Under the pieces are notes generated by a model, which worked only from the letters and a program-made list of their open reading frames with translations, had not been told where the DNA came from and did no database searches. From a virus, in IMG/VR virus record IMGVR_UViG_3300045988_088194: DNA of 64,000 nucleotides, one strand, 5' to 3'. The first letter of the stretch is position 1. Every line of letters begins with the position of its first letter. This document shows, piece after piece, positions 30,775-62,496 of the stretch. Made by a program: the position numbers and the translations under genes.

Positions 30775-31269
30775 ATGGTATTGACTTTAATAATTTGTTT
30801 CTTAGTTGCAGTAATAATAGCATTCAGTAGGGATGCACTTAACCTATGGCTATCTAAAAAGGTAGGGTTTTCTCTTAAGGAGACTATGACTGATATAGGT
30901 GTTCCCATAGTTACCCTGAAGAACGGGGAAAAAGAATTTAACTTCATTCTTGATACTGGAAGTGATATATCTCATATAGACTCTAATATTAAGGACTCTC
31001 TATCTAATATAGAGGAGGTTGAAGGTGATAATCTTACTGTTACTACTGCAAATGGTTCAGTTGAAGGTAACAACAACTGGATTAGAGTTCCTCTGAACTA
31101 TAAGAAACAGAGCTTTATTGAGGATTTCATGCCTTTGGACTTGCATGATTCCTTTGAGGTCCTAAGAGAAGATACAGGAATACAGTTGCATGGTATTCTT
31201 GGTGGTACCTTCCTTAGAAAGTACAGATATGTACTTGACTATGTTGATTTAGTTGCATATACAAAATGA
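30775..31269 (+). CDS. membrane-anchored retropepsin-like aspartic protease
   Basis: N-terminal TM helix. LDTGSD active-site motif and a GILGGTFL flap-like motif. Confidence 0.6.
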   Translation: MVLTLIICFLVAVIIAFSRDALNLWLSKKVGFSLKETMTDIGVPIVTLKNGEKEFNFILDTGSDISHIDSNIKDSLSNIEEVEGDNLTVTTANGSVEGNNNWIRVPLNYKKQSFIEDFMPLDLHDSFEVLREDTGIQLHGILGGTFLRKYRYVLDYVDLVAYTK

Positions 31270-33590
31270 ATAATATCTATCTTGTATCACAGCAGATATT
31301 GCCTCCCTCAGATACTTACAAAAGGATAAGTGTTGAGGAGTCTCTACAGTTGCTTGAAACTATCTCTGTTGTGGGTCTTGATACTGAGACTATGGGCTTT
31401 GACCCATATACAAAACAACTCCTTATGCTTCAGTTGGGCTGTTATGACTTTCAAGTAGTCATAGACTGTACCACAGTAAGTCTTGAACTCTACAGAAGTT
31501 ATCTTGAATCTGATAGGCTGTTCATTGGATGGAATATAAAGTTTGACTTGAAGTTCCTGTTCCATCAGAGAATAGTACTTAAGAATGTCTATGATGGGTT
31601 CCTTGCAGAGAAACTCATGTGGTTGGGTTATCCTGCTGGTACTCATTCTATGAGTCTTAAGGCAGCAGGGGAGAGATATTGTGGGGTTGAACTTGACAAG
31701 ACAGTCAGAGGCCAGATTATGTGGGCAGGACTTTCAGATGCAGTCATTGACTATGCTGCAAATGATGTAAAGTGGCTGTCTATGATTATGGAGAAGCAGG
31801 CTATAGAACTTGAGAAACAAGGTCTGGCAAATGCTCTTGTTTATGAGAATAAGTCTGTTATCTGGCTTGCCTATACTGAGTATTGTGGAGTGCTTCTTAG
31901 TAGAGAAAGATGGAGGAGAAAGATGGACTTGGACAGAATGAATGTCCAAGTGTTTGAAGATGCTCTCAATAAGTGGGTAATAAGTTCTTATAAAGGAGAA
32001 GAGTACTCCTATCATTATCTTCAGACAGAAGGTATTCCAGAAGATGACCTTAATAAGATGAGGTCTAAAATGGAAGGGGAGAGAGCACCAGAGGCTGATA
32101 TAAAAGGAGAAAAGAGAGGCTATTATGAAGCATATAAAGTTCCTATAGGAGTTAAGGTTCCTGAAGATTTTGTCATTGATGACCCTCAAGGAGACCTATT
32201 CTCTGGTTGGGACAATGCTGTTCAGTGTAATATAAACTGGAACAGTCCTATGCAGGTGATAAGACTTTTCAAGTTCCTTGGATTCAATCTGTTGGTTCAA
32301 GACCCTGAGACTGGTGAAATGAAGGATAGTATTGAGTCAAAAGTGATAGAGCCTCAGAAAGAGAGGTCTACTTTGGCTTATCTATATCTTCAGTATAAGG
32401 CTGCCACAAAGGTTACTTCTACCTATGGAGAGAATGTACTCAGGCAGATTAATGAGACCAGTGGAAGGCTTCATACCAACTTCAATCAGTTAGGAACTGA
32501 TACAGGAAGATTGAGTTCTGGAGGAAAGGATAAGAAGGCAGGACTTGAGTACCTGAACTTTCAGAACTTTCCTGCTGACCCTGAGACCAGAGCCTGTTTT
32601 ATATCTGGTCCTGGAATGAAGTGGATTAGCTGTGACTACAGTGGACAGGAGTCAAGGATTATAGCAGACATAACCAATGATGCTGCTATGCTTGACCTGT
32701 TCAACAATGGTTGTGGAGACATTCATTCTCTGGTAGCAAAGATGGCATATCCAGAAATTATTGGAGATTGCCCTATTGAGGAAATCAAACACAAGTTCAA
32801 GCATTGGAGAAGTGAGGCAAAGGGTGTTGAGTTTGCCATAAATTATGGTGGAGATGCCAACACTATCAAGTCAAATAAAGGTCTGCCTATACAAGAGGCT
32901 CAGAAGATATATGACAGTTATATGAAAGGTTTCAAGGGTATGAAGGCATATCAGGACAGACAGAGAAAGTTTGTCATGGAAAATGGCTTTATCATCCTTA
33001 ACCCAATAAGCCAACATAAGGCATATATCTATGACTATGACCTTCTGATGAAACTTAAGTCCAAGTTTACATCAGACTTTTGGTCTGATTATAGACTGTG
33101 TAAGGGTAAAGAGACCAAGAATCTGCCAAAAGTAGTGAAGCAGGAGCTCTATAAGAGGTTTGCTGAATGTACTGATATAAGGCAGGTTACAGGGCAATAT
33201 CCTTATACAAAGAAGGTAGGACAGAAGGAAGAACATTGTACAGCAGTAGTTACTCTGGAAGATGCCTATGTACATCCTGTCAAGCATTTCTTCAAAAGAA
33301 AGGCTGCTTCTGAAAAGCAGGCAATCAACTATCCTTGTCAGGGTACAGGAGCTGTCATGTTCAAGACAGCCTCATGTTTCTTGTGGGATTATCTTGTTAA
33401 ACATGACTTAGTATTCAAAGTCAAACTCTGTATTCCAGCACATGATGAATGGAATATAGAGGTTCCAGAGGAACTTGCTGATGAAATGACCAAAGTATTG
33501 CAGGACTGTATGGCTAAAGCAGGAGGATATTTCTGTAGAAAGCTTGAACTTCCAGCAGATGCGGAGGTAAACACATATTGGATACATTAA
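31266..33590 (+). CDS. family A DNA polymerase with 3'-5' exonuclease domain
   Basis: ExoI VGLDTET, motif A ISCDYSGQESRI, motif B RSEAKGVEFAINYGG and motif C IPAHDEW. Confidence 0.9.
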   Translation: MNNIYLVSQQILPPSDTYKRISVEESLQLLETISVVGLDTETMGFDPYTKQLLMLQLGCYDFQVVIDCTTVSLELYRSYLESDRLFIGWNIKFDLKFLFHQRIVLKNVYDGFLAEKLMWLGYPAGTHSMSLKAAGERYCGVELDKTVRGQIMWAGLSDAVIDYAANDVKWLSMIMEKQAIELEKQGLANALVYENKSVIWLAYTEYCGVLLSRERWRRKMDLDRMNVQVFEDALNKWVISSYKGEEYSYHYLQTEGIPEDDLNKMRSKMEGERAPEADIKGEKRGYYEAYKVPIGVKVPEDFVIDDPQGDLFSGWDNAVQCNINWNSPMQVIRLFKFLGFNLLVQDPETGEMKDSIESKVIEPQKERSTLAYLYLQYKAATKVTSTYGENVLRQINETSGRLHTNFNQLGTDTGRLSSGGKDKKAGLEYLNFQNFPADPETRACFISGPGMKWISCDYSGQESRIIADITNDAAMLDLFNNGCGDIHSLVAKMAYPEIIGDCPIEEIKHKFKHWRSEAKGVEFAINYGGDANTIKSNKGLPIQEAQKIYDSYMKGFKGMKAYQDRQRKFVMENGFIILNPISQHKAYIYDYDLLMKLKSKFTSDFWSDYRLCKGKETKNLPKVVKQELYKRFAECTDIRQVTGQYPYTKKVGQKEEHCTAVVTLEDAYVHPVKHFFKRKAASEKQAINYPCQGTGAVMFKTASCFLWDYLVKHDLVFKVKLCIPAHDEWNIEVPEELADEMTKVLQDCMAKAGGYFCRKLELPADAEVNTYWIH

Positions 33591-35406: not shown

Positions 35407-35987
35407 TGGCAACAGTTTATTTCATATCAGATGCTCACTTTGGACATAAGAACTTGAGTGAGAGATTTAGAGGAATGTCTGTTGAAGAGTCAGATGAATT
35501 GTTAATCAGGAATTGGAATAACAAGGTAAAGAAGAAAGATGATATTGTCTATTATCTTGGTGACTTTTCAATGGATGCTCCTGAACTTCTTGAGAAGTAT
35601 CTTGACAAATTGAATGGAAAGATATACATCATAGGAGGAAACCATGATACAAGAAGAGTGTGTACCAAATTCAAAGAGTTAGGCATTACTGTACTTGGAT
35701 GTATGGAATATAAGGGCTATATGCTCACTCATATGCCTGTAGATAGAAGGATGATTAAGGAAGGTCCATTCAGAAGATATAGAGGAAACATACATGGGCA
35801 TATCCATGCTTATGAACTTGTTTCCCCAGACTATATTTCTGTGGCTGCTGACCTCAATAATCTTACTCCTATGACTTTTGAGGAGATTATTGAGAAGCAG
35901 AAGAAGAAACATCAATTGAAAGTCAAACTCAAGAACTTCCTTATGTATGTTACCTTTTTGTTTAACAAAACTTTTAAGAAGAAATGA
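35406..35987 (+). CDS. calcineurin-like metallophosphoesterase
   Basis: Motifs SDAHFGH, LGDF, GGNHD and HGHIH. Confidence 0.8.
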   Translation: MATVYFISDAHFGHKNLSERFRGMSVEESDELLIRNWNNKVKKKDDIVYYLGDFSMDAPELLEKYLDKLNGKIYIIGGNHDTRRVCTKFKELGITVLGCMEYKGYMLTHMPVDRRMIKEGPFRRYRGNIHGHIHAYELVSPDYISVAADLNNLTPMTFEEIIEKQKKKHQLKVKLKNFLMYVTFLFNKTFKKK

Positions 35988-36670
35988 GAATATTGGTTAT
36001 AGGTGACATACATGGTCACAATGGCTGGGATAAAATAGTCTTCAAGGAGGATTGGGATAAAGTAGTCTTCCTTGGAGATTATTTTGACAATTATAAGAAT
36101 ACTCCTGGAAAAGAGCAAGTTACTAACTTCAAGGAGATACTTGCAATGAAGGCTACTCACCCTGATAAGGTAGAACTTCTTTATGGAAATCATGACCATT
36201 CCTATCTTAACAAGGAGATGTGCAGTGGTTATAAATGGCAAAATCAACTTATTTATGAAGAAGTACTTAAGGGAGCTAAGGATAAAGGTTGGCTTAAACC
36301 TGTGTATATTCATGATGACATTATCTTCTCTCATGCAGGAGTGTCTTCATATTGGCTCAAAGAGGTAGCCCAATTAGCACATCCTCAGGATATTACTTGG
36401 GAGAATGTTCCTCTTGATAAGTTCAACTTCAATGGACTTACTGGATACAATTCATTTGGAGATACACCTTCACAGAGTCCTATCTGGATTAGACCTACAT
36501 CTCTTCTGCAATACCCTATTGATGGATACAGGCAGGTAGTAGGACATACTCATATGGGGGCTCCTGTGAATAGAGATGGAGTATGGTTCAATGATATGAT
36601 GCCTAAGTATTATATCATTATTGAAGATGGCAACATAGAATTTAAGGAGAATAAATATGAGATTAATTAA
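35984..36670 (+). CDS. metallophosphoesterase (lambda-phosphatase-like)
   Basis: Motifs IGDIHGH, LGDYFD, YGNHDH and VGHTH. Confidence 0.8.
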   Translation: MRILVIGDIHGHNGWDKIVFKEDWDKVVFLGDYFDNYKNTPGKEQVTNFKEILAMKATHPDKVELLYGNHDHSYLNKEMCSGYKWQNQLIYEEVLKGAKDKGWLKPVYIHDDIIFSHAGVSSYWLKEVAQLAHPQDITWENVPLDKFNFNGLTGYNSFGDTPSQSPIWIRPTSLLQYPIDGYRQVVGHTHMGAPVNRDGVWFNDMMPKYYIIIEDGNIEFKENKYEIN

Positions 36671-37499
36671 ACCTTCTTATGAAATATGGGAGCAGGAGTC
36701 TGGTCTTGAAGGTGTCTATAAGATGATAGAGAAGGTAGGTAGAGTCTGTTATAAATCAGAAGATAAGATAGCAGAAGGAACTGCAAAGTCTTTTGTAGAC
36801 AGACTTATGAAATCAGGACATGGTGCTATGTTGGAACATGGTACTATATATCTGATGATTCCAAATGACCACCAAGCATATAATTTCTTCGGAGATAATT
36901 GGGTAAGAGACACCTATGGTGCATCTCCTTATTCTTCAGTAGTTTGGGATAGTGATAAAATTTACATTACAACTAACTTAAGAGTGCTGGTGGAGAATGG
37001 TTGGCTTGATGACTTGAAGTATCTTTGTGAACCTACTGAGTATCATGTTAAGAGAGTTACTGTACACTTTGTATGTGATAGAGGAGTATCCCATGAATTT
37101 GTAAGACATAGAGTGTTTAGCTTTGCTCAGGAGAGTACAAGATATTGCAATTATTCTAAGGATAAGTTTGGTAATGAAGTTACTTTCATTGAACCTTGCT
37201 GGTACAATACCTCTAAATCAAATGACCTTGCTGATGAGTATTTTATTAATAGTTTAAAAGATGCTGAACGGTTATATTTTAATCTATTAGACAATGGGTG
37301 GAAACCTCAGGAAGCAAGAGCAGTATTACCTAATGCTTTGAAGACAGAACTTGTAATGACAGGTTTTGTGGATGAATCTGGATGGATAAACTTCTTTAAT
37401 CTTAGAGCATTGGGGACTACAGGTGCACCACATCCTCAGGCTAAAGAACTTGCTGAACCACTCTTTGAAGAGTTTAAAGCCAAAGGGCTTATTAAATAA
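36657..37499 (+). CDS. thyX: flavin-dependent thymidylate synthase
   Basis: ThyX signature RHRVFSFAQESTRY (RHRxxSxxxxSxR). Confidence 0.9.
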   Translation: MRLIKPSYEIWEQESGLEGVYKMIEKVGRVCYKSEDKIAEGTAKSFVDRLMKSGHGAMLEHGTIYLMIPNDHQAYNFFGDNWVRDTYGASPYSSVVWDSDKIYITTNLRVLVENGWLDDLKYLCEPTEYHVKRVTVHFVCDRGVSHEFVRHRVFSFAQESTRYCNYSKDKFGNEVTFIEPCWYNTSKSNDLADEYFINSLKDAERLYFNLLDNGWKPQEARAVLPNALKTELVMTGFVDESGWINFFNLRALGTTGAPHPQAKELAEPLFEEFKAKGLIK

Positions 37500-38149: not shown

Positions 38150-38192
38150 AAATATACATAGAAATTCACTTACGGAATAATTAGATTTATTG

Positions 38193-38225
38193 GGGAGACT
38201 AATAAAGTCTCCCTTATTTTTTCTT
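38193..38225 (+). terminator. rho-independent terminator
   Basis: GGGAGAC-TAATAAA-GTCTCCC followed by TTATTTTTT. Confidence 0.7.
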
Positions 38226-38306: not shown

Positions 38307-38332
38307 TCCTAAATCTAAATTATTATAATAAT

Positions 38333-41300
38333 ATGGCTTGTGTAAACACAAAGGAAAAAAGTTTTAAAGAGCTAGTTTCTAAATATGGTGCTTCATCAGG
38401 AACTGTAGAAAATGCCATTAAAATTTATATGGATAAAAATAATCTTGAGACCTATGATACTAATTCTCAAGATTTCATAGACCATATGGATTCTTATTTT
38501 CAGCTTAAAAGCAGTAATTTCTACTCTTCTAAAGGTAAGTACAATAGAGCTCATGCTCTTTGGGAAAAAATAAATCCTACACAAAATGTAGCAGATATAA
38601 AGACTGCTACTAAAGAGTATAATGCTCTTGTTGAAATATTTGGAGAAAATAATGTTACTGTTTTTGAAACTTCAGATGGAGGATTTAGAGTTAGGGCAGC
38701 TGAGCCTATATTTGGTGACGGTATTACTTCAGATAAGAAATTATTGAAGGAAATGTCTGACATTCTTTCTAAAGCTCCTAGAGATAAAAATGGTAATCTA
38801 TTAGCTCCTAATGGTAAAAAGTCTAATTTAACTGAAAGACAATATGCTCAAGTAAGAACTAAAGCTTTTAAAGAGTGGTTTGGTGATTGGGAAACATTAG
38901 CAGAAGGACATAATAAAAAACTTAATTTACCTGATAAACCATCTGGTCTTACTGATACTTGGATAAAAGATAATATAGTAGAATTTAAAGGTTTATCTAC
39001 GGGAACTAAATATAATATAGGCTATTCTGGTGGAAGATATTTTATCGTTATAAATATTAATGGAATTAATGTTCCATTCTATAAATCCTCAGGTTTAGGT
39101 GGAAAAAAGAATGTTGAAGCAGGTAAATGGTATCCATTTTTTGGGATATCTAAAAAAGGATGGTTAAATAAGACTACTGAGGAGGAAATAAACAACTACT
39201 ATAATAGTCAAGTACTTGAATTAATTTCTAATAAACTAGATTCATTATTTAATAATGAAGACTATGGTATAGAAATAGTAAATGGTATTCCAGTAAAGAA
39301 GGGTAAACAAGCTAATAACGCTATAGATTTAAACTTTACAGACGGAGAAAAAGTCATAAATAAAGACCTTAATCCTACTGAAAATCATAAAGATAATACT
39401 GTAAATATAGTAAATAGTAATATTGAAAAAGTTAAAAGGAGTATATCTTATACTACTTTAAATAATAAAGTCTCAAAAGTAGTAGATGAAAATGGTGAAC
39501 CTTTGGTTGTTTATCATTATACAGATAATGAAAGTCTGACTAAATTTAGTACAGAGTTTGATAATTATTTCTCAAAGGAAGGTGGTACTAAGAAAGCTAT
39601 ATTCTTTACAACAGATAATGTTGTACCTGGTAGTGAAGATAACTTCTTAACTAATAGAAAAGCTAAGCTGGCATTATTCTTAAATATAAAAAACTTAGAA
39701 GAGTTTCATGGTACTAAAGAAGATTTGCATAAACAAGGAACTTCTTATAGAGAAATAGTAAATAAATCTTCTGAAAGAGCAGGTCTTGAAAATGGTATAG
39801 TATTTACTGGTTTTGATGATAACAAGAAGGAGAATCAAACTATATATGTTGTTCATAATCCAAATCAAATTAAATCAGCTACTAGTAATACAGGAGCTTT
39901 TTCTAAAATTAATGATAGAATAGACGATTTTGAAAGTAATGTAAAAGTTACTGTTGAATATACTCCTATAGGAAAAAGTAGACAAACTTATACTATTAGA
40001 GGGAACAAAATCTTTAATAAAGAAGGTAAAGAAGTCTTTAAGACAGACAGTGTAGATAGAAACAAGATTTTTGCCAATCTTGCAGTACAGCAAGGTAGAG
40101 CAGTAGTAGTAAATCATAAGAATAAAGAGTATGTTGTAAACAACAGAAATCAGATTATCTCTGTTACTACTGGTAAAATGATGCAGTGGGATGAAAAGAA
40201 TGGAGATAGAAATGCAATCATTAAAGCTGCTCAGGAAAAGTTTAGTAAAAACAAACCCTCTGAAAGTATTCAAAAATCTGCGTCTTTTAATTGGGGAAGA
40301 ACTTCAGATAATAATTATGAAGTATCTTCAAAAGGAGATAAAAGATTTTCTGCTCTTAATGCTACCTTTAAGAAAGGTACTGTTATAGATGGAGTAGATG
40401 TAGGAGGAATGACCATTGAAGATGTATATCAGAAGGTCATTAAAAAGAGTGGTAAAGGTAAAGCTCCTGCTGTAGATAGTAAGTTAAATATTTCTTACAG
40501 AGTAAGTACCGAAGGAATTACTAAGCAATATGGAGTAGTAATAGATAAAAATTTAAAAAGAAATTATAGTGAATGGCAAAATGCTAATCCAAATGGTATA
40601 GTTGCGTATAGAGTTAATTATAGTAAATACAATACCCCTGAAGAAGCACAAGCTGGTAGAATAGGTAATCCATTTTCTGAAGGTATAGGACAAGCTAATA
40701 AAGGGGAAGATACTGTACAAAAGTTCTTTATTTGGCTTACTACTGGAAATAACTTTGGTAATCCAAAAGCTACTGAAGAATATAGACAAGCCATTCTTCA
40801 TAAACTAATTAGTACTCCAAAAGGAACTAATATATTATATTATACTGAACTCAATAGACCATCTCATGCAACTGTATTAGGTTATTTAATTAATCATAAG
40901 GAATTTATAACAAACTATAAAGATAGTGCAGAAGATTTCTCTTATACTGAAGGTTATTTACCATTGTGGCAAGAATGGGCTAAACAAAACCCTGAATTAA
41001 TAGAGGAACTAAGAACTAAAGCAGCAGGTAAAACTCTTACTGACCAGTTTGCTAATACAAGAGTAAGTCAGGCAAGAGCTTTGGCTGATATTCTTAATTC
41101 TACTAATACTAAGTCAGAAACTATAGAAGAAGCTCCTATATTTGAAGAAGAAAATAATAATATGCAATCTGCTAAAGAACTTGTAGATAGGATGATAGCA
41201 GATTCAAGAGAGCATATTAAATTTAACAAAGAGGACCATTCCTATATAGTAGATGGAAAAAAGGCTGATACCAGTGTTACTCAGTTTATACATGGTAAGA

Positions 41301-44300
41301 AAGACCTTGGTCAATGGGGAACAGCAGCCTCTGCCATAGGTACAACAGCAGACAGTGTCACAAGAGACTTCTTCAAAGGTGAGCTGAAAGATGAATATCC
41401 AAACTTGTCAGATAAGGACCTTTCCTTTCTCAAGCATGACTTGAAGAGCCTTAGGAACTTCTTTGACAAGAAGTTTGGAAAGGACAAATATACAGTAGTG
41501 ACTGAAGAGTTCCCAATAGCCTCAAAGTATACATACACTGACAAGGATGGAAAACTTAAGGGAGGTGTAATGGCAGGAACTATGGATATGCTTATCTATG
41601 ATAATGAAGGTAACTTCTATATCTATGATATGAAGACTTCAAGAAGTGGTCTCAATGAGAACAAGGTTGCTGGATATGCAAAGCAGCTGACACTCTATAA
41701 GGCTATTCTTGAGGCCAATTATCCAGAGCTGAGAGGCAAGATAAAGGAGCTTAAACTTATTCAGTTTAGGGTAGGTTATCCACAACCTGGAGCTGACTTC
41801 ATCTATTCAGCAACTGATGGTCAGTTATATCTTAATAATGTTCCTATTCAGGAGACTGAAGACTACTATGCACCTCACTTGGATTTTACTGGAAACAGTC
41901 TTGACAATCAGGTGCTTGTTCCAGTAGAACCTGTAAGTATGGATATTCACTTTGAAGGTATGACTGAAGATGAGGTAGAATCAATGAGGGAGGAAACAAG
42001 AGAGCCAGAGAGTACTGAGTTCTCACAGAATGAAGTAGATAGCCAGAGAGATAACCTCTATGGAAACCCTCTGCTTTCAGCTACAGAGAGAACATTCCTT
42101 GCTAACAATGTAATGAGTCTTACTTCCTTTATTGTTACTCACTTACAGACAAATCCTGAGGCTAATCAGTTCTATTTTGGAGACCAATTCAGTAGGCTCA
42201 ACTTTACTAAGATGTCAAGAGAAGACATCATAAGTACTGTTGGGGTAACAAAGATATTTGAGTATATAAAGGAAAGATGGTATAATCCTGATAACAGGAC
42301 TGACATTGATGATTTTGATACTCTTGACAAGTTACAGATAGCCTATGACAACTGGGCAGCCCTTGTGAAGTCTGCCTATGCAAAACTTATAACTCTTGAA
42401 GGTGTTACAGTAGTTGCTGCAAGACCTGATGAAATAAGTAGAGAGGATATTGAGACCTCTTTTCAAGAACAGATAGATGCTGGTGAACTTGAAGAGAAAG
42501 AAAGGGAGTATTGGCAGCTTGGTATAAGAAACATATCAGCAAGGTCAAGTCTTAGTGGTGATATAAGAAGGTCATTTGAAAGGCTCTTTGCCATAGACTC
42601 CAATGGAAATCCTATAAAGGACAAGTTTGGTTTCAATTTTGATACTTTTGTAGATTCTGGTGTTGCTGTAAATAGTATCCTTGAATGGACCAGAACTGCT
42701 ACAACTGTAGAAGAGATGGAGGAGATACTTGATGGAATGAAGGACTCTTATCCTTGGCTTAACTCTATCCTCAATAAGATAAAGGAAGAACCTTTCAGGT
42801 CTCAATTCTTTCAGAATTTCAGAAAGGACTTTACACAGTATAGTATTGTAACTGTGGAAAGGGATGAGAAAGGAAATAAGGTATATCAGACTCAAATAAT
42901 TAACACTAAGGGAGCATCACAGTCTGTACTTGATGAGATTACTACCTATTATAATTCAGGACTTATGCAGAACATCATAATCACTGCTGATGGTATTGAA
43001 GGTAAGGGTAGGGTTAATGTCAAGAATGTTGAGGCTCTTAAGGCTGAGAAGGACAAAATAGTATCTGACCTTAAGGGTGCATTCACTGCTGTGAGAAAGG
43101 AAGTATATAATAACACTCTCAAGAACTCTGTACCTAAGATTACAAAACTCCTAAATGAGTTAGGAATAAGAGTAGATGCCAAGACAGTCTCTAATACCAT
43201 AGTTGGTAAAGAAAGACCTAAGGACATTAATAACTCCCCAGTAATGAAACTTCTGAGTGAAATGTCCTATATGTTTGATGCCTTGCTATCAAAGAAGGAC
43301 TCTACCTCATATAATCCTCTTCTTAAAGGGGAGGAGAAGAACATCTATGGAAATTATAAATCTATAGTTGGACTTATGAGCAAGTATATTCAGGACAGTA
43401 TTGAGTCATCATCCTATGAGAATGGCAAGATGCACTACTCTTTTGTAACTCCTTCTTATATGGGAAAACTTATTCTCAATCTGAAAGATGCCATTGGCAA
43501 TCCAAGCAAGTTCAATTCATTTATGGAAGAGAATTATGGGTCATATAGATGGTTCAGGGAAGAGGATGGAACTTGGAATAATGCATGGCTTGAGTTGATT
43601 TCTGAAAGTAAGGATGCAAGACAAGGCTTGGAACATAAAGTTCAGTTGTCATTTGATGGAACTCCTTACACTGATTTGAGTGAGTTGGGATATACTCTAT
43701 CTCTTATGAGTGAGTACTTCTATGATAAGGGAAGTAGAGGAAAAGGTCCTCAGTGGGCATGGTACAGAGTTCCTATGCTTTCAAATAAACCTTCTTCCGA
43801 ATTTATAAGGTTCAAGAGATACTCAGGTTCTGAATATAAGAGAAGAATCAAGAGGGGACTCAAAATGGTTCTCAATCAGGAAGTTCTTAGGTTCAGAGCT
43901 GTACTTGAAAGAAGTGTGAATGCAAACATTGAACCTATCTCAAACTTTGATATAAGTTCTAAAGTCCTGAAGAAGAATCCTCAGATTGAGGCTAAGATGA
44001 GAGCTGGAGAACCTCTTACTCATGATGACCTTGTGAAGAATGGAAAACTTATAACTGCTGCAAGTGGAGCTTCCTTTAAGTTCCTTGAAGCTTTCAATCA
44101 AAATATAGTTGAAGGTGATGAGCTTGGAATGATGCTTATAGACAAGATAAATGGTGTCAGTGTAAATGAGGATTCTTTTGACAAGTTAGTCAATCAGAAC
44201 CTTGATTCTTACATGGACATTATAGTAAGCAAGGAGATTTCACAGTGGGAGAAGATTGGTCTATTTGATACAGAGGAAGTCAGAAGGGGCGAAGATGTTG

Positions 44301-47300
44301 AAACAAGATATAAGTACATATCTAATCTTACAAGGTCATACTCAACTATAAAGAAAGAACTGTTTGGAAAGGAGAGAAGACTCTCCAAGGAACAGAAGTC
44401 TGAGATAATGCAGGTTATGGAGTCTGAGGCTAAGGCTAATCTTGAAGAGTATGTATGGAATGATATGTTTGCAACTATAAACATAATCCAACTTACTGCT
44501 ACAGACCTTGCCTATTACAAGAATGTAGAGGACTTCCAGAAGAGGTATGCTCAAGTCCATTCTCCTGCAATGAGATTGAATATAACTGCAAGGGATTCAA
44601 AGGGTAGACTCTATTCTGCTGATGGAATGGAAAGAACCATGTACATTACAGATTATGAGGTAGAGTCTGACATAATTCCTAATGTTGAAGAGATATTTGA
44701 CCAGAGGATTTCTTCAATCTCTGACCCTTCTGAAAAGGCTAACATGAAAATGATGAAGGACCTCATAGTTGATTCTTTCAGGAAGATTAATGTAGCAGAT
44801 GCTCAGGGGTATTCATCACCTACTTCATACAGAAAGAAGATGGGTATGATGGGTAAGTGGTCTGATGAAATGGAAGAGGCTTATAATAGAATCAAGAGAG
44901 GAGACTTCAATGTCAATGACCTTGGTGTTGTCTGGCAGCCCTTAAAACCTTTTGTCTATTCCCAGATTAGGAAACCAGGAGGTTCAGATGCTCTTTCTGA
45001 ACTTAAGGTTCCTGTTCAGAACAAGAACTCTGAATATCTTCTCCTCCTTGCAGATGCACTTATGAGAGGGGGAAAGAAGCAGAGCAAACTTGCTGCTATC
45101 TTTGATTTCATGGAGGAATCTGCCTATGATGGCAGAGAGACCCAATTCAATCCAAAGACCAACACTTATGAGGTTGTAAAGGAAGGTACATACAATGGAA
45201 AGGGTATTGATACTGTCCAGTTTGAATCATCTGTGAAGTCAGGAAAGTCTGGAGTTGTGAACATAAATAAGGTAGAATCATATGAGGAAATTAAGAATAT
45301 CCTTAATGAGGCTACATATATCAATTCTGACAGAACTGCTTCTTCTGATAATAATAATGACAGATATAATGTCAATTACATCCATACAATCCCTTTTGAA
45401 GATTATGGCATTCAGCAGGAAGTTCCTGCCCACTTGGTAGACCATGAGCAGCTCATGGGTTCTCAGATGAGAATACTTAGTATAAGTGACATTACCCCAG
45501 GTACTGAGTTCCAGATAGGAGATGAACATCTTAAGAGTGATGAACTTATCAGTGAGTATCAGAATCTTATAAAAGAAAACATTGAGCAGAGTTTTGAAAG
45601 ACTGTGTAAAGATTTCAAGGTCAGAGGAACAAGGCTTGAAAGGAATAAGGCACTTGAGAAAATACTTCAGGAAGCTATTGAAAAGGACCAGAGGTATGGT
45701 GCTGATATACAGAGAGCTTGTTCTCTTGATAAGAATGGAGAATTTATAATCCCACTTAGTGACCCTATACAGTCTATCAGAATACAGCAACTTCTCAATT
45801 CTATTATAAAGAGCAGGATAAACAAGCAGAAGGTAACTGGTGGTCCAGTAGTTCAGGCTTCAGTATTTGGTATGTCAGATGACCTTTCAATAAGATTCAA
45901 GGACAAAGATGGAAATCTCATTGAAACTTATAGTGAGTTTGTAGAGAAGAGGGGTTTCTCAAAGGATAAATCTTCAGCAGCTAAATATAAGAAGTTCATT
46001 AATGACAAACAGGCTTCTGTGGCATACTTTGAGTGCTATATGCCTATTCCTTCTTCTGAACTTGAAGAAGCTCTTACAAGATATGATAAGGATGGACATG
46101 CATACATAATATCAATGGAAGAAGCAGTTAAGGAAGGTATAATTCCTGAAGAAATGAGAAAGGCTATTGGATATAGAATTCCTACAGAGGATAAGTATTC
46201 TATGGCTCCTCTCTATATAAAAGGATTTCTTCCTAAAGCAGCTGGAGAGGCAGTGATGCTCCCTAAAGAGATTACTCTTCTTTCAGGTTCTGACTTTGAT
46301 ATTGACAAGCTGTATGTGATGCTTAAGACTTTCACTCTCAAGAGGAGAACTGATTGGGGTAAACTTGAAAAAGATATTCTCAAATCAAGCAAGGCTAAAG
46401 GAGAAGAGAGAAAGAAGAGAAAGGAAGCCTTGAGGATAGTCATTGAGCAGATTAAGGCTGGAATGGAGTTTAGTGAAGGCACCTTTGAAATGGCTGTGCA
46501 TGACTATTATTATGACCATAGAGACAGGTATGATAGAGCTTCTTTTGAACTGTCTGATGGTGGTACTGATAGAAGGAACAACAGGATATTTGACCTTCAG
46601 TGGGCTGTTCTCACTAACCCTGACACAATGAGCAAGATGTTTAATCCTGGTTCATTTGATGTACAGAAGAAGACTGCAAGAATTGTAAGGATACTTCAGG
46701 AGACAAAGGGTCATACCTATCAGGAGTTGAGCAAGCTTAATCTTGACCAGCTTGATGAAATACTTGACTCTTCAACTGACAGGAATATCATCTACTCAAC
46801 TTCTCAGGTGTACTTCCATAAGCAGAATATGACTGCTGGCAAGTTGATTGGTATATTTGCTAATAATAACACCAGTCACGCATTTATTTCTATGCAGGGA
46901 ATAGACTTAAAGTTAGGAGATGACCTTAAGTTTACATTTGATGGAGTCACAGTAGATGAGAATCAAAATAATAGATTGGACCCACTGAAAGGAAAAAATG
47001 GTAGTTTAATTAGTAAAACTATTGCAGGTTTTCTTGCAGCCTCTGTGGATGCTGTGAAGGACCCAGTACTTAACTTTATGAATCTTAATACATTTACTTC
47101 TGGACCAGCAATGGTTCTGGCAAGACTTGGTTTTGATTCTGACAGTATAGGTCTGCTTCTCTCTCAGCCTATTATAAGAAGGGTGACTGATGAATACTTC
47201 AGGAGGAACAATGAGGGTTACATCTCAGCTGAGGACCTAATTGATGAGTTTCTTGAACAGGACAAGAATGCAAAGGGTTATGAAAAGACTCTTACTCTAA

Positions 47301-48856
47301 CTAACTTCTCTAAAGAAGAACTTGCTCAGGGTATATCACTTAATAGTGATAAAGGAGACTTTCAGACAAGAGCACTTATTTTGTTCAAGAGGTTGTCAAA
47401 AATATCACAGGACTTTGGCACACTTACATTCCTTACTAAGTTCAACTCAGTAACCAATGCTGTTGGTCCAACCATTGCAGATACCCTTGTAATGAAGCAG
47501 AGATATAAGAAGTTCCTTGACAAGTTTGAGGATGGCAATGCAATCTTCTCAGATAATGCAAAGAATGTCATTCAGAACTCTCCTATTCTTGATGCCTTCT
47601 ATACAACCACAGTATCTGATACTGGGGCTTCTCAGTTGATATTCCAGGGATATTTCCCTCAGTACTCTGATAAATTCAATCAGGTTCTTGGAAAGTTCAG
47701 AGAAACCACAAAGGCAAATGTAGATAGCAAGACTATCAATTCCCTTGTCAGTGACTTTGTTCTTTACAAACTTACTGGAGGACCAAACCCAGTTCTTAAT
47801 TCAGATGGAAAGGTAAGAGAAGAGTTCATCCATGACTTTATAGTAGAGTTTAAGGAGAAGGCTGCTGGAATAGTAGATAATGAACTTATCAAGATTATAA
47901 CTGTTAAACCTTCTACTGGAAAATGTCCTGTTCCAACTTTGGAAGCAAAGACTGGTGGATATACTCAGGATGTTCAAGAGAGAGTAAGAGATGCTTGGAC
48001 AAATCTTATAACAAATGAAAGTACAAGAGACCTTGGAGTCAAACTATTCTTCTACAATATGTACAGAACAGGACTTTCATTCAGTCCTAAGACTTTCCTT
48101 CACCTTGCTTCAACTGATGTGAAACTTGCAATTCCAGGATATGTTGAAAGTATTAGGGATATCAATTATAATGACTCCTTTGATGTGAATGACTTCCTTC
48201 TTCAGTATAGAAGGAATCATACAGACAACTTCAGGGTTGTTCCTCATATAACACAGAGAAAGGGAATTGCATCTTCTATCACTGAAGATAGAGCTGGTAA
48301 CAGGAAGATAACCTTCACATTTGCTTCAGACAGTGCTTCTTCACAGTTCATTGTCAAGAAGGTAAAAAGGGGAAGTGGAAAAGTATCTACTAAAGAGACA
48401 ATAGCTGCTCCTGTTATCCTCTATAATGATAAGGTGTATTTCAATCCTGAAATCAACTCAGATGGTTCTATTACTTATACTGAAACAACAACTCTTGGTA
48501 ATACCAACAACTTCCTTGAATATGATATGAATGAATCTGGAAGTGAGATAAGAACTTCTATTCAGAGAACTTCTGAAGAAGATGTACATGAGAAGGAGGT
48601 TCAGGAGTCTCCAGCAAGAGAAGTTCCTGAGGATGATGGAGAGACTGAAGCAGTAGAGCTCTCAGAGACTGATATTGAGAATATACTCAGTGAGATATTT
48701 GATGAGGGTGAACTGGACAGTCTTATGACATCTCTTGTCAAAGGACAATCAAAGAAGGTAGACAAGTATAAGAGTATGATTGAAGAGCACACAGACTCTG
48801 AGACTGCTTCTAAGGTTATGAAGAAAATGATAGATATTGTAAAGGGAATTTGCTAA
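38333..48856 (+). CDS. giant virion-RNAP-like protein (crAss-type) with a fused N-terminal polyvalent-protein-like module
   Basis: - Uninterrupted 3507-aa ORF.
- GSDFDIDK (DFDID at nt 46292-46306) resembles the DxDxD metal loop of double-psi-beta-barrel RNAPs described for crAss-like virion RNAPs.
- PD-(D/E)XK-like MDMLIYD..IYDMKTS..QLTLYKAIL at nt ~41577-41710.
- The N-terminal 943 aa are AT-rich and carry WFGDWE, VVYHYT..FFTT..QIKSA and GNPF motifs. Confidence 0.75.
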   Translation: MACVNTKEKSFKELVSKYGASSGTVENAIKIYMDKNNLETYDTNSQDFIDHMDSYFQLKSSNFYSSKGKYNRAHALWEKINPTQNVADIKTATKEYNALVEIFGENNVTVFETSDGGFRVRAAEPIFGDGITSDKKLLKEMSDILSKAPRDKNGNLLAPNGKKSNLTERQYAQVRTKAFKEWFGDWETLAEGHNKKLNLPDKPSGLTDTWIKDNIVEFKGLSTGTKYNIGYSGGRYFIVININGINVPFYKSSGLGGKKNVEAGKWYPFFGISKKGWLNKTTEEEINNYYNSQVLELISNKLDSLFNNEDYGIEIVNGIPVKKGKQANNAIDLNFTDGEKVINKDLNPTENHKDNTVNIVNSNIEKVKRSISYTTLNNKVSKVVDENGEPLVVYHYTDNESLTKFSTEFDNYFSKEGGTKKAIFFTTDNVVPGSEDNFLTNRKAKLALFLNIKNLEEFHGTKEDLHKQGTSYREIVNKSSERAGLENGIVFTGFDDNKKENQTIYVVHNPNQIKSATSNTGAFSKINDRIDDFESNVKVTVEYTPIGKSRQTYTIRGNKIFNKEGKEVFKTDSVDRNKIFANLAVQQGRAVVVNHKNKEYVVNNRNQIISVTTGKMMQWDEKNGDRNAIIKAAQEKFSKNKPSESIQKSASFNWGRTSDNNYEVSSKGDKRFSALNATFKKGTVIDGVDVGGMTIEDVYQKVIKKSGKGKAPAVDSKLNISYRVSTEGITKQYGVVIDKNLKRNYSEWQNANPNGIVAYRVNYSKYNTPEEAQAGRIGNPFSEGIGQANKGEDTVQKFFIWLTTGNNFGNPKATEEYRQAILHKLISTPKGTNILYYTELNRPSHATVLGYLINHKEFITNYKDSAEDFSYTEGYLPLWQEWAKQNPELIEELRTKAAGKTLTDQFANTRVSQARALADILNSTNTKSETIEEAPIFEEENNNMQSAKELVDRMIADSREHIKFNKEDHSYIVDGKKADTSVTQFIHGKKDLGQWGTAASAIGTTADSVTRDFFKGELKDEYPNLSDKDLSFLKHDLKSLRNFFDKKFGKDKYTVVTEEFPIASKYTYTDKDGKLKGGVMAGTMDMLIYDNEGNFYIYDMKTSRSGLNENKVAGYAKQLTLYKAILEANYPELRGKIKELKLIQFRVGYPQPGADFIYSATDGQLYLNNVPIQETEDYYAPHLDFTGNSLDNQVLVPVEPVSMDIHFEGMTEDEVESMREETREPESTEFSQNEVDSQRDNLYGNPLLSATERTFLANNVMSLTSFIVTHLQTNPEANQFYFGDQFSRLNFTKMSREDIISTVGVTKIFEYIKERWYNPDNRTDIDDFDTLDKLQIAYDNWAALVKSAYAKLITLEGVTVVAARPDEISREDIETSFQEQIDAGELEEKEREYWQLGIRNISARSSLSGDIRRSFERLFAIDSNGNPIKDKFGFNFDTFVDSGVAVNSILEWTRTATTVEEMEEILDGMKDSYPWLNSILNKIKEEPFRSQFFQNFRKDFTQYSIVTVERDEKGNKVYQTQIINTKGASQSVLDEITTYYNSGLMQNIIITADGIEGKGRVNVKNVEALKAEKDKIVSDLKGAFTAVRKEVYNNTLKNSVPKITKLLNELGIRVDAKTVSNTIVGKERPKDINNSPVMKLLSEMSYMFDALLSKKDSTSYNPLLKGEEKNIYGNYKSIVGLMSKYIQDSIESSSYENGKMHYSFVTPSYMGKLILNLKDAIGNPSKFNSFMEENYGSYRWFREEDGTWNNAWLELISESKDARQGLEHKVQLSFDGTPYTDLSELGYTLSLMSEYFYDKGSRGKGPQWAWYRVPMLSNKPSSEFIRFKRYSGSEYKRRIKRGLKMVLNQEVLRFRAVLERSVNANIEPISNFDISSKVLKKNPQIEAKMRAGEPLTHDDLVKNGKLITAASGASFKFLEAFNQNIVEGDELGMMLIDKINGVSVNEDSFDKLVNQNLDSYMDIIVSKEISQWEKIGLFDTEEVRRGEDVETRYKYISNLTRSYSTIKKELFGKERRLSKEQKSEIMQVMESEAKANLEEYVWNDMFATINIIQLTATDLAYYKNVEDFQKRYAQVHSPAMRLNITARDSKGRLYSADGMERTMYITDYEVESDIIPNVEEIFDQRISSISDPSEKANMKMMKDLIVDSFRKINVADAQGYSSPTSYRKKMGMMGKWSDEMEEAYNRIKRGDFNVNDLGVVWQPLKPFVYSQIRKPGGSDALSELKVPVQNKNSEYLLLLADALMRGGKKQSKLAAIFDFMEESAYDGRETQFNPKTNTYEVVKEGTYNGKGIDTVQFESSVKSGKSGVVNINKVESYEEIKNILNEATYINSDRTASSDNNNDRYNVNYIHTIPFEDYGIQQEVPAHLVDHEQLMGSQMRILSISDITPGTEFQIGDEHLKSDELISEYQNLIKENIEQSFERLCKDFKVRGTRLERNKALEKILQEAIEKDQRYGADIQRACSLDKNGEFIIPLSDPIQSIRIQQLLNSIIKSRINKQKVTGGPVVQASVFGMSDDLSIRFKDKDGNLIETYSEFVEKRGFSKDKSSAAKYKKFINDKQASVAYFECYMPIPSSELEEALTRYDKDGHAYIISMEEAVKEGIIPEEMRKAIGYRIPTEDKYSMAPLYIKGFLPKAAGEAVMLPKEITLLSGSDFDIDKLYVMLKTFTLKRRTDWGKLEKDILKSSKAKGEERKKRKEALRIVIEQIKAGMEFSEGTFEMAVHDYYYDHRDRYDRASFELSDGGTDRRNNRIFDLQWAVLTNPDTMSKMFNPGSFDVQKKTARIVRILQETKGHTYQELSKLNLDQLDEILDSSTDRNIIYSTSQVYFHKQNMTAGKLIGIFANNNTSHAFISMQGIDLKLGDDLKFTFDGVTVDENQNNRLDPLKGKNGSLISKTIAGFLAASVDAVKDPVLNFMNLNTFTSGPAMVLARLGFDSDSIGLLLSQPIIRRVTDEYFRRNNEGYISAEDLIDEFLEQDKNAKGYEKTLTLTNFSKEELAQGISLNSDKGDFQTRALILFKRLSKISQDFGTLTFLTKFNSVTNAVGPTIADTLVMKQRYKKFLDKFEDGNAIFSDNAKNVIQNSPILDAFYTTTVSDTGASQLIFQGYFPQYSDKFNQVLGKFRETTKANVDSKTINSLVSDFVLYKLTGGPNPVLNSDGKVREEFIHDFIVEFKEKAAGIVDNELIKIITVKPSTGKCPVPTLEAKTGGYTQDVQERVRDAWTNLITNESTRDLGVKLFFYNMYRTGLSFSPKTFLHLASTDVKLAIPGYVESIRDINYNDSFDVNDFLLQYRRNHTDNFRVVPHITQRKGIASSITEDRAGNRKITFTFASDSASSQFIVKKVKRGSGKVSTKETIAAPVILYNDKVYFNPEINSDGSITYTETTTLGNTNNFLEYDMNESGSEIRTSIQRTSEEDVHEKEVQESPAREVPEDDGETEAVELSETDIENILSEIFDEGELDSLMTSLVKGQSKKVDKYKSMIEEHTDSETASKVMKKMIDIVKGIC

Positions 48857-51800: not shown

Positions 51801-52937
51801 CTTCTTCCACAGTATATGGCAGAACTTAACTCTACAAAGAAAACAAGTAAGCTTGGTCTCCTTATAGACAAGTTTGATGCTCTTGAAGAGTTCTATGGAA
51901 ACCTTAAATCACAAGGGTATTACAAAGGACCTTTGTCAAGAATTATAGGTTCTGCAAATATATTCTTCCTTAACAACATGGGAGAGCACTATCTTCACAG
52001 TAGGAATATGCTGGCTATGCTCAATAATGTCAAAGTAAAGGACAGAAGTGGAAAAGAGATGAGCCTGTTTGATGCTTTTGAAGTAAAGACAGACCCTGAA
52101 GGGGCATCAAAGATAGTCCTTAAGGAGGGAACAAAAGACCTTGATGGTAATCTTCTTTCTACAGAAGGGCTTGACAGGAACTCTGAATTGTATGAAGAAG
52201 TGGAGAAGAGATATGATGACTTCATTACAAACCAGAAACTAAGGATTGGAAAGGTCAATCAATCTCTTAATGGTGCATTCAATGAGACTGACAAAGGAGC
52301 TATCCATAGATATTCTCTTGGAAGACTTGCTATGCAGTTTAGACAGTGGATGCCTGCCCATTACTCAAGAAGGTTCTCAAGTGCAAGTTATGATGCCAAA
52401 CTTGACCATTGGAGAGAAGGTTATTACAGAACTATAGCAAGATTTGCTATAAACCTTATGAAAGATATAGGCAGAGCAAAGTTTGACCTTGCAACCAACT
52501 GGAACAGTCTTAGCACCCATGAGAAGGCAAACATAAGAAGGGCTTTAACAGAACTTGGAATGTTTGCTACACTTTCAGCACTTATTGCCATGATAGGACC
52601 TGAGAAGGATAAGAAAGGCAGATGGGGCGAGAGAATGATTGTATATCAGCTTAAGAGAATGCAACTTGAGACTGGTGCCTCTATACCTTGGTTCTCAGCC
52701 ATTGAGAATGCATGGACCATATTACAAAGTCCAGCAGCAGCCATAAACAGTTTCAATGGACTGCTTGATTTGGTTAAGTTCTGGAACATGTTTAATGAAC
52801 TTGAATCTGGAAGATACAAGGGGTGGAGTGAGTGGGAGAGAGATGCTTCACAGGCAATTCCTCTTTATGGTCAGCTTAGGAAGATAGCAGACCTCTCTGA
52901 GGAAGATTATATGTACACTATATTTGCTGATAGATAA
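48858..52937 (+). CDS. large virion-associated protein (RNAP partner or ejection protein?), function unknown
   Basis: 1359-aa ORF starting 1 nt after the giant ORF stop. It has C-terminal hydrophobic segments (LGLGLNLFSAISNV, MFATLSALIAMIG). The call is positional only. Confidence 0.5.
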   Translation: MVKSCVYVPTVKVGNQEVDSQLFRELVTYTGNRESAKYIWGLTQVPEFMSSLKGIEKDKNGEPTLSSLTKAIDIDSLLDEGISIEGAKKELGAINSKGEPVIHSSTDEIINSVVKFNKNHPKMVADIGSKDGGYVINVEPKTPQNATSPEKLVFNSSLNNQLRGILRRLGFDVEVLSTPRFNAMFSPENARTNAEGLKTVIQIAKGQRGEDAFPEEFSHLMIEGLINQPLVQRLVNSVGSYEVLKEILGENFDTYVRLYKGDMESLQKEAAGQLLQKYITGESLPVSRPSLLERLWNWIKSKFGSMSEDDVDNIILQANRDASQVASSILDESILPLVDKDLIVNAKTLYNVERSVSGMEELAQKALEVASKRLEILRLRSRSGRYSEDDLKSIKNLQDLIEKKKYSKSCLAFLSDSLQQLEQLNTNLSKLDANNLSEESDLNRIRKISSTLRKIKEFSDAYEPIIKQMMSIDAMKERGEVELSAEDAATIADKASSVFRIITKINSGYKSMRFNTLYSFLKMYWGEDKIIDSGKDKGKRITLEMIMKMADKDINFLDRYISSMSDASDPMLSLVDKVVKSTQSKRDSVLEEVLAGVRSAHTKLSQAGYTTDFMYERDKNGKLTGRIISDIDFVKFKEEYDAEKKRLMDEKLPYYTVKSKLDAWERRHTETVLIDADSGRKEELPKKSLYGVDRISKLAPAQREYYNTMINLKATLDSLIPARFANTFNAVQIRNDVTEAIMDNVTNPKKSGKMVIENLKDSFLRRSDDTDWGDTTVLGDGESPILTKAKKIGLDFSGNPIQKLPVYYTTPLEDMERLSTDFTSSIMAYASMAINYNEMSKVIDVLELTRDLIKEREVQQMSGDSKLIDAFKVVHKKFSKNYTKSGERTNIGERIDDYYASVLYGQHKKDEGAWNVFGKEIDKAKTMDALKSYTGALGLGLNLFSAISNVTMGKMQLFIEAMSGEYFNMKDSAIGKKNYYALLPQYMAELNSTKKTSKLGLLIDKFDALEEFYGNLKSQGYYKGPLSRIIGSANIFFLNNMGEHYLHSRNMLAMLNNVKVKDRSGKEMSLFDAFEVKTDPEGASKIVLKEGTKDLDGNLLSTEGLDRNSELYEEVEKRYDDFITNQKLRIGKVNQSLNGAFNETDKGAIHRYSLGRLAMQFRQWMPAHYSRRFSSASYDAKLDHWREGYYRTIARFAINLMKDIGRAKFDLATNWNSLSTHEKANIRRALTELGMFATLSALIAMIGPEKDKKGRWGERMIVYQLKRMQLETGASIPWFSAIENAWTILQSPAAAINSFNGLLDLVKFWNMFNELESGRYKGWSEWERDASQAIPLYGQLRKIADLSEEDYMYTIFADR

Positions 52938-58299: not shown

Positions 58300-58311
58300 A
58301 AAATTTCATCT

Positions 58312-62393: not shown

Positions 62394-62409
62394 TATATAA
62401 TCATTTGCT

Positions 62410-62442: not shown

Positions 62443-62450
62443 AAGGTATA

Positions 62451-62491: not shown

Positions 62492-62496
62492 CTTAA

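Follow-up and report, generated by a model that had tools for sequence, protein, structure and literature searches.

Polyvalent proteins combine several effector-type domains in one polypeptide, are shuffled as mosaics and are predicted to be injected together with the DNA, their most common modifying enzyme being the ADP-ribosyltransferase (ART) of the ART-PolyVal family (PMC5512222). The ART-PolyVal prototype is fused to an N4-like virion RNA polymerase (RNAP), a combination found in Roseovarius Plymouth podovirus 1 (PMC5512222). Here we describe an ART-PolyVal array joined to a virion polymerase of another kind, in a 64,000-nucleotide stretch of viral DNA (IMG/VR record IMGVR_UViG_3300045988_088194; the whole stretch is called the window below) whose source is a crAss-like (Steigviridae-like) phage. 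A single unbroken open reading frame (ORF) of the window encodes a giant protein of 3507 aa. Our overall explanation, to which we give a probability of about 0.7, is that this protein has a conserved N-terminal head, a variable slot and a constant nuclease/RNAP body, and that the slot holds effector cassettes acquired from lower-GC crAss-like phages.

Virion data on the polymerases and cargo proteins of crAss-like phages exist for phi14:2 and crAss001. The gp66 protein of phage phi14:2 is packaged, translocated into the cell and transcribes the early genes; before packaging it inhibits itself, and proteolysis or refolding may be required (bioRxiv 10.1101/2020.03.07.982082). In crAss001, gp47, gp49 and gp50 were found in virions by mass spectrometry and have been proposed to be ejected cargo (PMC10172136). 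The protein of the window resembles phi14:2 gp66 and crAss001 gp50 in its homologous body from aa ~1336, in its DFDID motif and in adjoining the genes of cargo proteins C1 and C2 (crAss_CARGO2 and crAss_CARG1; both genes lie close by on the opposite strand). The crAss001 enzyme starts at about aa 1336 of the window protein (tblastn), and the ~1335 extra N-terminal residues are the array and a nuclease.

Other described systems share some of these features. The polymerase considered here is the crAss two-barrel enzyme (phi14:2 gp66/6VR4), unrelated to the T7-like N4 enzyme, and unlike in the N4-like case the array has a fixed place, a defined slot bounded by a lineage-specific N domain on one side and by a PD-(D/E)XK nuclease on the other. 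The polyvalent proteins of PMC5512222 further differ in that no MPTase protease is found in the array of this strain. T4 Alt, a capsid-carried and injected ART that modifies the host RNAP and other proteins (PMC5512222, PMC9503650), offers a functional model, but it belongs to the R-S-E clade of ARTs and is a stand-alone head protein without polymerase fusion. Polymorphic toxins likewise combine a constant delivery part with exchangeable enzymatic cassettes, conserved junctions and strain-level polymorphism; in the present case, however, the variable part is internal and not C-terminal, delivery would occur by virion ejection, and neither immunity genes nor silent cassette arrays were seen.

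The N-terminal block of the giant polymerase

From aa ~1336 onward, crAss001, cr116_1 and other proteins annotated as 'putative RNA polymerase' align with the window protein at 33-35% identity over ~2000 aa (tblastn), the solved phi14:2 gp66 (PDB 6VR4) is matched at E 9.6e-37, and the DFDID catalytic motif lies at aa 2654-2658 (nt 46292-46306). On this homology together with the DFDxD motif, the body is predicted to be a crAss-type virion RNAP of the phi14:2 gp66 family, in agreement with an earlier reading of the bare sequence (the original prediction below), which had seen a module joined in frame to a virion-RNAP-like giant. The preceding segment matches PF12705 (27.4 bits against a Pfam cut-off of 22, at aa 944+110..205) and PHROG exonuclease families (E 1e-7), and contains the motif ..MDMLIYD..IYDMK.., with IYDMK at aa 1097. 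The profile matches and the D...(D/E)xK motif assign it to the PD-(D/E)XK superfamily, and we also find the domain in the related contigs L004-L008, L021 and L022. An exact look-up of the 3507-aa product returned no record. Megablast of 36-50 kb against GenBank phages gave a short match in ThyX only, so that there is no close published genome.

The N-terminal module is compositionally foreign. Sliding-window GC content is 0.27-0.32 at ~38.2-41.2 kb and 0.36-0.40 on either side, and GC at third codon positions (GC3) is 0.15 for codons 1 to ~950 against 0.35 in the remaining ORF and the other genes of the window (by segment, 0.12-0.19 in aa 1-900 and 0.27-0.43 beyond). The shift is nearly all synonymous, GC1 and GC2 being almost flat. 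The maximum-likelihood change point of GC3 falls at codon 952 (2-lnL support interval 941-990), with a gain in log likelihood (lnL) of 71 against a permutation maximum of 8.8 (n=200), and no segment of matching length elsewhere, whether in the remaining ORF or in 14 further genes, falls below a GC3 of 0.27. The relative synonymous codon usage of the block correlates at 0.75-0.77 with that of its own genome and at 0.93-0.95 with that of low-GC crAss-like genomes; the polymerase body and the other genes of the window correlate at 0.98. An array-like composition recurs in one other gene only, a LAGLIDADG endonuclease gene (25765..26550, GC3 0.137). Sliding-window GC and codon usage had been proposed as a check of the original prediction and bear it out on three points: the foreign composition itself, an AT-richness of the first ~2.8 kb, which GC3 and the change point render stronger than first estimated, and a codon preference like that of the homing endonuclease gene. 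A translational effect at the 5' end of the gene was rejected as the source of the low GC, since the block measures 2.7 kb, is absent in sister phages and is 88-97% identical in nucleotides (nt) to other genomes. The LAGLIDADG homing-endonuclease gene (PF14528, E 2e-10), whose codon usage correlates at 0.90 with that of the array, itself sits in a local low-GC stretch at 25-27 kb.

Close relatives were collected by scanning IMG/VR for contigs with the nuclease-polymerase junction; L022 is an ENA contig from a different sample. L004, L005 and L006 are 94-98% nt identical to the window on both flanks. In these three (ORFs of 2708-2732 aa, 2708 aa in L004 and L005) there is no array and the N domain is joined almost directly to the nuclease. 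L004 and L005 consist of an N domain (GC3 0.39), a 17-residue linker and the equivalent of aa 944 onward, their identity to the window being 95.9% over aa 927-3507, and L006 is built likewise but retains a remnant of the tail of domain Z and linker, ADILNSTNTKSEAVEEAPVFEEENNNMQSA. L022 carries the same N allele (97% nt) followed straight by domain Y (96.6% nt) and lacks the segment made of linker motif, insert X and ART; after Y, an HExxH domain and an SLOG-like domain replace Z, followed by NNNMQSAKELVDR and by a nuclease-polymerase that is 91% identical. Because the block is missing (L004-L006) or replaced (L022) in sister phages with 91-97% identity on both flanks, it is foreign to this genome lineage and a recent gain. 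The original claim of a foreign module is thus upheld; relatives uniformly sharing the N-terminal region and its composition would have spoken against it, and this is not what we find. At 1086-1700 of L022, the ORF encoding N and Y comes to an end; the array goes on in the +1 frame, where part of the Y tail is duplicated (..QEKFNSNKSKSQKQQ..). The zincin-like HExxH domain (ILHEAIHAV) follows this frame change, which may reflect an error in sequencing, the scar of a recombination or programmed frameshifting.

The ends of the block can be located by comparison with these relatives. On the 5' side, the window and L004 are nearly identical up to ~16 nt into the ORF, intergenic region included, and then diverge; on the 3' side, identity resumes at 41166 with L004 and at 41084 with L006. 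The foreign block would accordingly extend over about nt 38349-41083/41165 (aa ~6-926) and would include an allelic replacement of the N domain, whose copy is a low-GC allele with 60% aa identity to L004 over aa 1-127. The junction linker is common to the window, L006, L022 and the giant polymerase P0240, and the peptide motif EEAP[IV]FE, a marker of cassette edges like FKxWFGD[SW], is lineage-specific, occurring in the window, L006, L022 and four homologues. The original prediction had placed the ancestral start of the gene at M944, behind an A-rich leader. The A-rich codons exist, but they encode the conserved linker EEENNN and form no leader. An ancestral start at M944 was rejected because every relative found (L004-L008, P0240-P0263) has an in-frame N domain homologous to aa 1-127, and because L004 and L005, 96% identical downstream, have a Thr at this position.

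Domains of the array

Domain borders were set by mapping 239 database homologues onto the sequence (Table 1). Where the original prediction had seen one module, there are no fewer than three cassettes, each exchangeable by itself, and two insertions nested within; the motifs it had quoted are all present (FKEWFGDWE at aa 179, VVYHYT at 392, AIFFTT at 422, VHNPNQIKSA at 507 and GNPFS at 778). Counting ART-PolyVal, X, Y, Z, the DUF4326-like domain, PD-(D/E)XK and RNAP, the predicted product can be classed as a polyvalent protein in the sense of Iyer et al. 2017, that is, one with at least two effector-type domains in one polypeptide.

Table 1. Features of the giant polymerase gene and its upstream border in the window; domain assignments are predictions.
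Feature	Coordinates	Strand	Residues (aa)	Remarks
Terminator-like hairpin and T-run	38192..38223	+		9-bp stem, 5 GC pairs; closes upstream unit
Giant ORF	38333..48856	+		cassette array, PD-(D/E)XK nuclease and crAss-type virion RNA polymerase
N domain	38333..38740	+	1-136	conserved N-terminal head of this giant-polymerase family
Linker motif	38741..38893	+	137-187	..APNGKKSNLTERQYAQVRTKAFKEWFGDWE; phrog_30335, E 2e-10
Insert X	38894..39466	+	188-378	between linker motif and ART; phrog_32390, E 6e-10
ART-PolyVal ADP-ribosyltransferase domain	39467..39943	+	379-537	Pfam match at aa 385-523
Domain Y	39944..40273	+	538-647	separately mobile
Domain Z, N-terminal half	40274..40486	+	648-718	
Nested domain in Z	40487..40912	+	719-860	weakly DUF4326-like, GNPF motif
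Domain Z, C-terminal half	40913..41110	+	861-926	
Junction linker	41111..41161	+	927-943	..TKSETIEEAPIFEEENNN; 3' recombination boundary
PD-(D/E)XK nuclease-like domain	41162..41932	+	944-~1200	resident protein, native composition
Virion RNA polymerase body	42338..48856	+	~1336-3507	tblastn and PDB 6VR4 match

The ART domain, which the original prediction had already recognised, matches the full PF18760 profile (1-140/140) with 52.8 bits against a cut-off of 31.2 (E 9.3e-14). It is 85% aa identical to a domain of 1527-1595-aa proteins which dozens of ~100-kb contigs carry, and its motif is strongly conserved among them; no solved relative of the ART family was found in the PDB. The linker motif recurs between the domains of polyvalent proteins (157 occurrences of the pattern FKxWFGD[SW] in 113 of the 239 homologues) and marks the 5' edge of the mobile ART cassette. 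Since it directly adjoins the ART domain in most homologues, X, which is missing from most of them, represents an extra insertion at that junction. The core of X matches gp039, a 1957-aa 'structural protein' of Cellulophaga phage phi17:2. An intein or homing-endonuclease insertion was considered for X and rejected, because aa 188-378 have no Pfam match at E<10 and no splice-junction residues and because the homologues of X are ordinary domains of other large phage proteins.

Domain Y, 64% identical in the polymerase of L021, has no match in Pfam or the PDB. Pfam searches with isolated N, linker, X, Y, spliced Z and nested domain gave nothing usable, and the PHROG scan had no match for N, Y or the nested domain; the PHROG families matched by the linker, X and spliced Z are all of unknown function. 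Sequence and profile searches of the PDB with the whole module and with the spliced Z, Z, Y and ART families yielded no credible match.

Domain Z is interrupted by another domain. Its halves are contiguous in most homologues, and once spliced (648-718+861-943) they match phrog_9995 from end to end (E 1e-26). An AF2 model of aa 644-943 reaches a predicted local distance difference test score (pLDDT) of 90.7 and a predicted template modelling score of 0.80; its closest neighbours in BFVD are uncharacterized phage proteins of small size whose alignments span the insertion (E 7e-4 to 9e-3). In other proteins Z is fused to canonical DUF4326, cpYpsA, NADAR, DUF7831 and DUF1848. The loop that receives the insertion (40486/40487, 40912/40913) is occupied in other proteins by quite unlike inserts (~30 to ~290 aa), one of them SLOG/LOG-like ('FVFGSN..GRHGAGAA'), and this variety at one loop marks it as an insertion hotspot.

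The nested domain had been labelled DUF4326 in the original prediction, a label that the data weaken. PF14216 (DUF4326) does not match aa 719-860 even at E<10 in Pfam, the Cys/His motif of the family is missing, and what links the two families is weak and indirect. Among 12 close homologues of the nested domain, one matches PF14216, at E 0.0033 and below the cut-off, and hhalign of the nested-domain family with three genuine DUF4326 sequences gives a probability of 67.6% over 41 columns, covering GNPF and the next helix. The DUF4326 fold is rhodanese-phosphatase-like (PMC9503650), and the top PDB matches of the nested-domain AF2 model (pLDDT 86.6) are DUSP26 and rhodanese SseA, both weak (E 1.1-2.5); in BFVD, five DUF4326 proteins appear in the top 26 matches with sub-threshold E values of 0.6-3.3 and a root-mean-square deviation (rmsd) of 2.3-25.1 A, the four short local alignments having an rmsd of 2.3-7.8 A. 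The nested domain is therefore at best DUF4326-like and not a DUF4326 member.

Cassette transfer and the slot in other cargo proteins

The ART cassette has close counterparts in distant phages. Nucleotides 38759-39901 (1143 nt: linker motif, X and ART) are 88% identical to contig L002, the 3' end of the shared block falling exactly at the Pfam domain boundary. L002 has ~26% GC (21-30%) and carries the block within an 824-aa ORF downstream of ThyX, with unrelated flanks. A second counterpart, of the linker motif and ART without X, is found in L003, a crAss-like contig of ~99 kb: nt identity of this unit is 86-88%, and the polymerases of L003 and the window share only 27% aa identity. There, the cassette resides in a gp49-like cargo protein of 1531 aa, whose homologue in the window (48858..52937) has no cassette, and it forms a low-GC3 island as well (0.17-0.19 vs 0.35-0.41). 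Within L003 (10001-14596), conserved backbone segments (GLK.VI.I.K..R ... EEW/F.H..) flank the loop of the gp49-like protein that holds the cassette. Comparison of the window with L002 or L022 gives a ratio of non-synonymous to synonymous substitution rates (dN/dS) of 0.16-0.24 in every sub-block, which places the domains under purifying selection. The synonymous divergence (dS) of X from L002 is 0.11, against 0.72-0.77 for the flanking linker motif and ART, so that the cassette is itself a mosaic; the spread or conversion of X seems to postdate that of the surrounding cassette.

The slot is variable well beyond the sister phages. An exhaustive HMMER search with the N domain retrieved only 30 cluster representatives among 1.84 billion proteins; 28 of the 30 have the match at residues 1 to ~130, and 14 are giants (1774-4332 aa). 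Between the N domain and the polymerase/nuclease body lie ~20 to ~1470 aa in at least 14 giants. P0240 (3299 aa), an independent in-frame analogue, is composed of N, linker, ART, Y, a different cassette, EEAPVFEEENDNMQSA and the body. The closest polymerase in the phage collection (35% identity) is that of cr116_1 (Pamirivirus faecium, NC_055882), in which gp051, annotated VOG3903/hypothetical, is a 2507-aa ORF that like the window protein combines the N domain, ART-PolyVal (aa 248-376, E 4e-13) and polymerase; it differs in being 37% identical over aa 1-534 and in having no X and, by BLAST, no Y, Z or DUF4326-like domain. In every case found, cassettes were seen in cargo proteins only.

Two further arrangements were noted in other contigs. 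The 3126-aa polymerase of L003 (614-9994) begins with NADAR, cpYpsA and DUF7831 domains in a stretch of lower GC3. In most of the low-GC viral contigs L009-L020 (IMG/VR), a PD-(D/E)XK domain 32-35% identical to aa 925-1152 sits close to the C-terminus of ORFs of 2356-2396 aa; in L009, the sole example scanned, Pfam had no match in the ~1970 residues that precede it.

Upstream of the giant ORF, the window encodes a calcineurin-like metallophosphoesterase (35984..36670) and the thymidylate synthase ThyX (36657..37499); the position of ThyX relative to the ART-containing ORF is similar in L002. The intergenic region directly upstream of the ORF (38150-38332) contains the terminator-like hairpin, which is identical in L004 and L006 and is embedded in nearly identical intergenic sequence in L004. 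L004 and L005 have extra DNA at two places, ~780 nt at 33344/33345 (in or next to ORF 31266..33590) and 700-1000 nt at 37475-37530 between ThyX and a 210-aa ORF, and L006 differs again at 35442-35942; these are further indel or mobile-element polymorphisms. GC and AT skew both change sign at ~53 kb (52-54 kb), where the + strand genes give way to cargo genes on the - strand (52993..63867).

Proposed role of the array and competing explanations

We propose that the slot of this phage houses an ~800-aa array of in-frame cassettes, namely the linker motif with X and ART-PolyVal, Y, and Z with its nested DUF4326-like domain, and that such cassettes would be exchanged by recombination at conserved domain edges: the N domain, the FKxWFGDWE linker motif and the EEAPIFEEENNN linker. 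The whole polypeptide would be made late, packaged in the capsid with the other cargo proteins and ejected, before the DNA or together with it, into the Bacteroidota host, where the array would act as a polyvalent effector while the RNAP body transcribes the early genes. The ART domain would ADP-ribosylate a host macromolecule early in infection; NAD+/ADP-ribose-derived molecules are plausible substrates of Z and the DUF4326-like domain, given the fusion of relatives of these two to NADAR, SLOG and DUF4326 domains. The N domain, which is strictly N-terminal, may serve packaging or lead the ejection. Packaging, ejection, enzymatic activity and targets are what we infer by analogy, delivery with the DNA being reasonable to expect from the virion data on crAss001 and phi14:2. 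The ART, NADAR, SLOG and DUF4326-like repertoire is tied to host-directed NAD/ADP-ribose conflict systems (PMC9503650), and the injected polymerase probably also carries variable anti-host enzymes.

Several observations weigh against this interpretation. The ART-PolyVal active site is a His-Tyr-Asp triad, with His in strand 1, Tyr in strand 2 and Asp in strand 5 (Iyer 2017, PMC5512222). The His is present (H395, within VVYHYT), but the Tyr position is a Phe (F424) across the clade, as it is in several other family members, and the candidates for the Asp, D495/D496, fall in a column that is not conserved across the family, so that the acidic catalytic residue is placed without confidence. With F424 and an uncertain acidic residue, ART activity is not assured. 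A Tyr-to-Phe change is tolerated at the stacking position of diphtheria-toxin-type ARTs. In the nested domain, the C-x-C...C-H-G-D motif of DUF4326 is replaced by YY...SHAT (aligned region: ILYYTELNRPSHATV) and the Cys are gone in 12/12 family members. Foldseek searches of the PDB with both AF2 models returned nothing at E<0.3, which leaves Z and the nested domain without a PDB neighbour, and N, X, Y and Z all lack a functional annotation. Finally, packaging may never include the array, or cleavage may remove it beforehand; no protease domain is detectable in the array of this strain or in the neighbouring cargo genes, zincins included in the latter.

Non-delivery of this kind, in which a second start at M944 or cleavage in the producing cell would leave the enzymes to act late, is an unlikely alternative. 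An A-rich stretch does precede M944, NNNMQSA is conserved in the window, L006, L022 and P0240, and some crAss phages are thought to cleave fused cargo polyproteins. The stretch is, however, the coding sequence of a conserved acidic/Asn linker, L004 and L005 have no Met at this position, and near 41.1 kb there is neither a terminator nor a distinctive promoter signal beyond the AT-rich background; moreover, the restriction of cassettes to cargo proteins is hard to explain unless co-packaging matters. We consider about equally improbable that the array acts in cis on the phage machinery, for example by keeping the polymerase inactive until ejection, by helping packaging or refolding, or by modifying phage DNA or protein. 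Such a role would suit the self-inhibition of phi14:2 gp66 before packaging and its possible need for proteolysis or refolding, the location of the array directly N-terminal of the nuclease-polymerase body and the strictly N-terminal N domain, which suggests that this end functions in packaging or ejection. Yet the near-identical L004-L006 live without the array, so that polymerase function does not need it, L003 has this ART cassette in another cargo protein, and the domain repertoire is that of host-directed conflict systems (PMC9503650).

The mobility of the cassettes could also be taken to mean that they are selfish in-frame DNA spreading between cargo genes without benefit to the phage: they form an island of foreign composition resembling that of the LAGLIDADG gene, they are 86-88% nt identical across phages whose backbones are 27% aa identical, and the dS of X, much below that of its flanks, suggests very recent spread. 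This explanation is less likely still, as no signature of a homing endonuclease, intein (Hint) or transposase is found in or next to the block, dN/dS values of 0.16-0.24 reveal selection on the encoded proteins and dozens of ~100-kb genomes share a strongly conserved ART motif. That the assembler joined a low-GC block to this genome at short shared sequences is the least probable explanation of all, hardly to be expected even though both junctions lie in sequence that other phages share (the N-domain start and the EEAPIFEEENNN linker) and the exact product has no record elsewhere. Speaking against it are: (i) the frame, intact over 3507 codons, (ii) the same 5' junction of native intergenic sequence and this N allele in L022, which comes from another sample, (iii) the same 3' junction sequence before the nuclease in L006 and P0240 and (iv) the independent in-frame fusions of N, ART and polymerase in P0240 and in cr116_1 gp051, the latter from a published complete genome.

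Polyvalent proteins, the fusion of an ART to a virion polymerase in N4-like phages, and mosaicism were already known, and as the concept is established in other phages the surprise is limited. In the literature, of which our coverage is incomplete, we found no description of ART/polyvalent cassettes on crAss polymerases. New here are the chassis, a crAss two-barrel polymerase and a partner cargo protein, and the defined slot behind a dedicated N domain, with domains nested in domains. The comparison of near-identical strains moreover provides direct evidence of cassette gain, loss and swap, and that of phages with ~27% identical cores direct evidence of cassette transfer. It is tempting to speculate, although we hold this wider view only tentatively and as somewhat less likely to be right than wrong, that the injected cargo of crAss-like phages (the polymerase and gp49-like proteins) is a chassis for a shared pool of low-GC in-frame effector cassettes that move between very distantly related phages by recombination at conserved linker peptides, co-circulating and otherwise near-identical strains differing mainly in the NAD+/ADP-ribose-targeting counter-defence enzymes they inject. 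Such a system, if real, would be a phage counterpart of polymorphic toxins, and differences in host range between strains, as well as the positive selection reported for crAssphage RNAP genes, might find part of their explanation in it.

Crassvirales are the most abundant human gut phages, and to our knowledge how they overcome Bacteroides defences is largely unknown. The locus suggests that the virion polymerase doubles as a delivery vehicle for exchangeable enzymes. The widespread function-unknown domains N, X, Y, Z and the DUF4326-like family gain a concrete context, and the natural near-isogenic strains, with no array, this array or another array, constitute a ready-made experiment on the injected domains.

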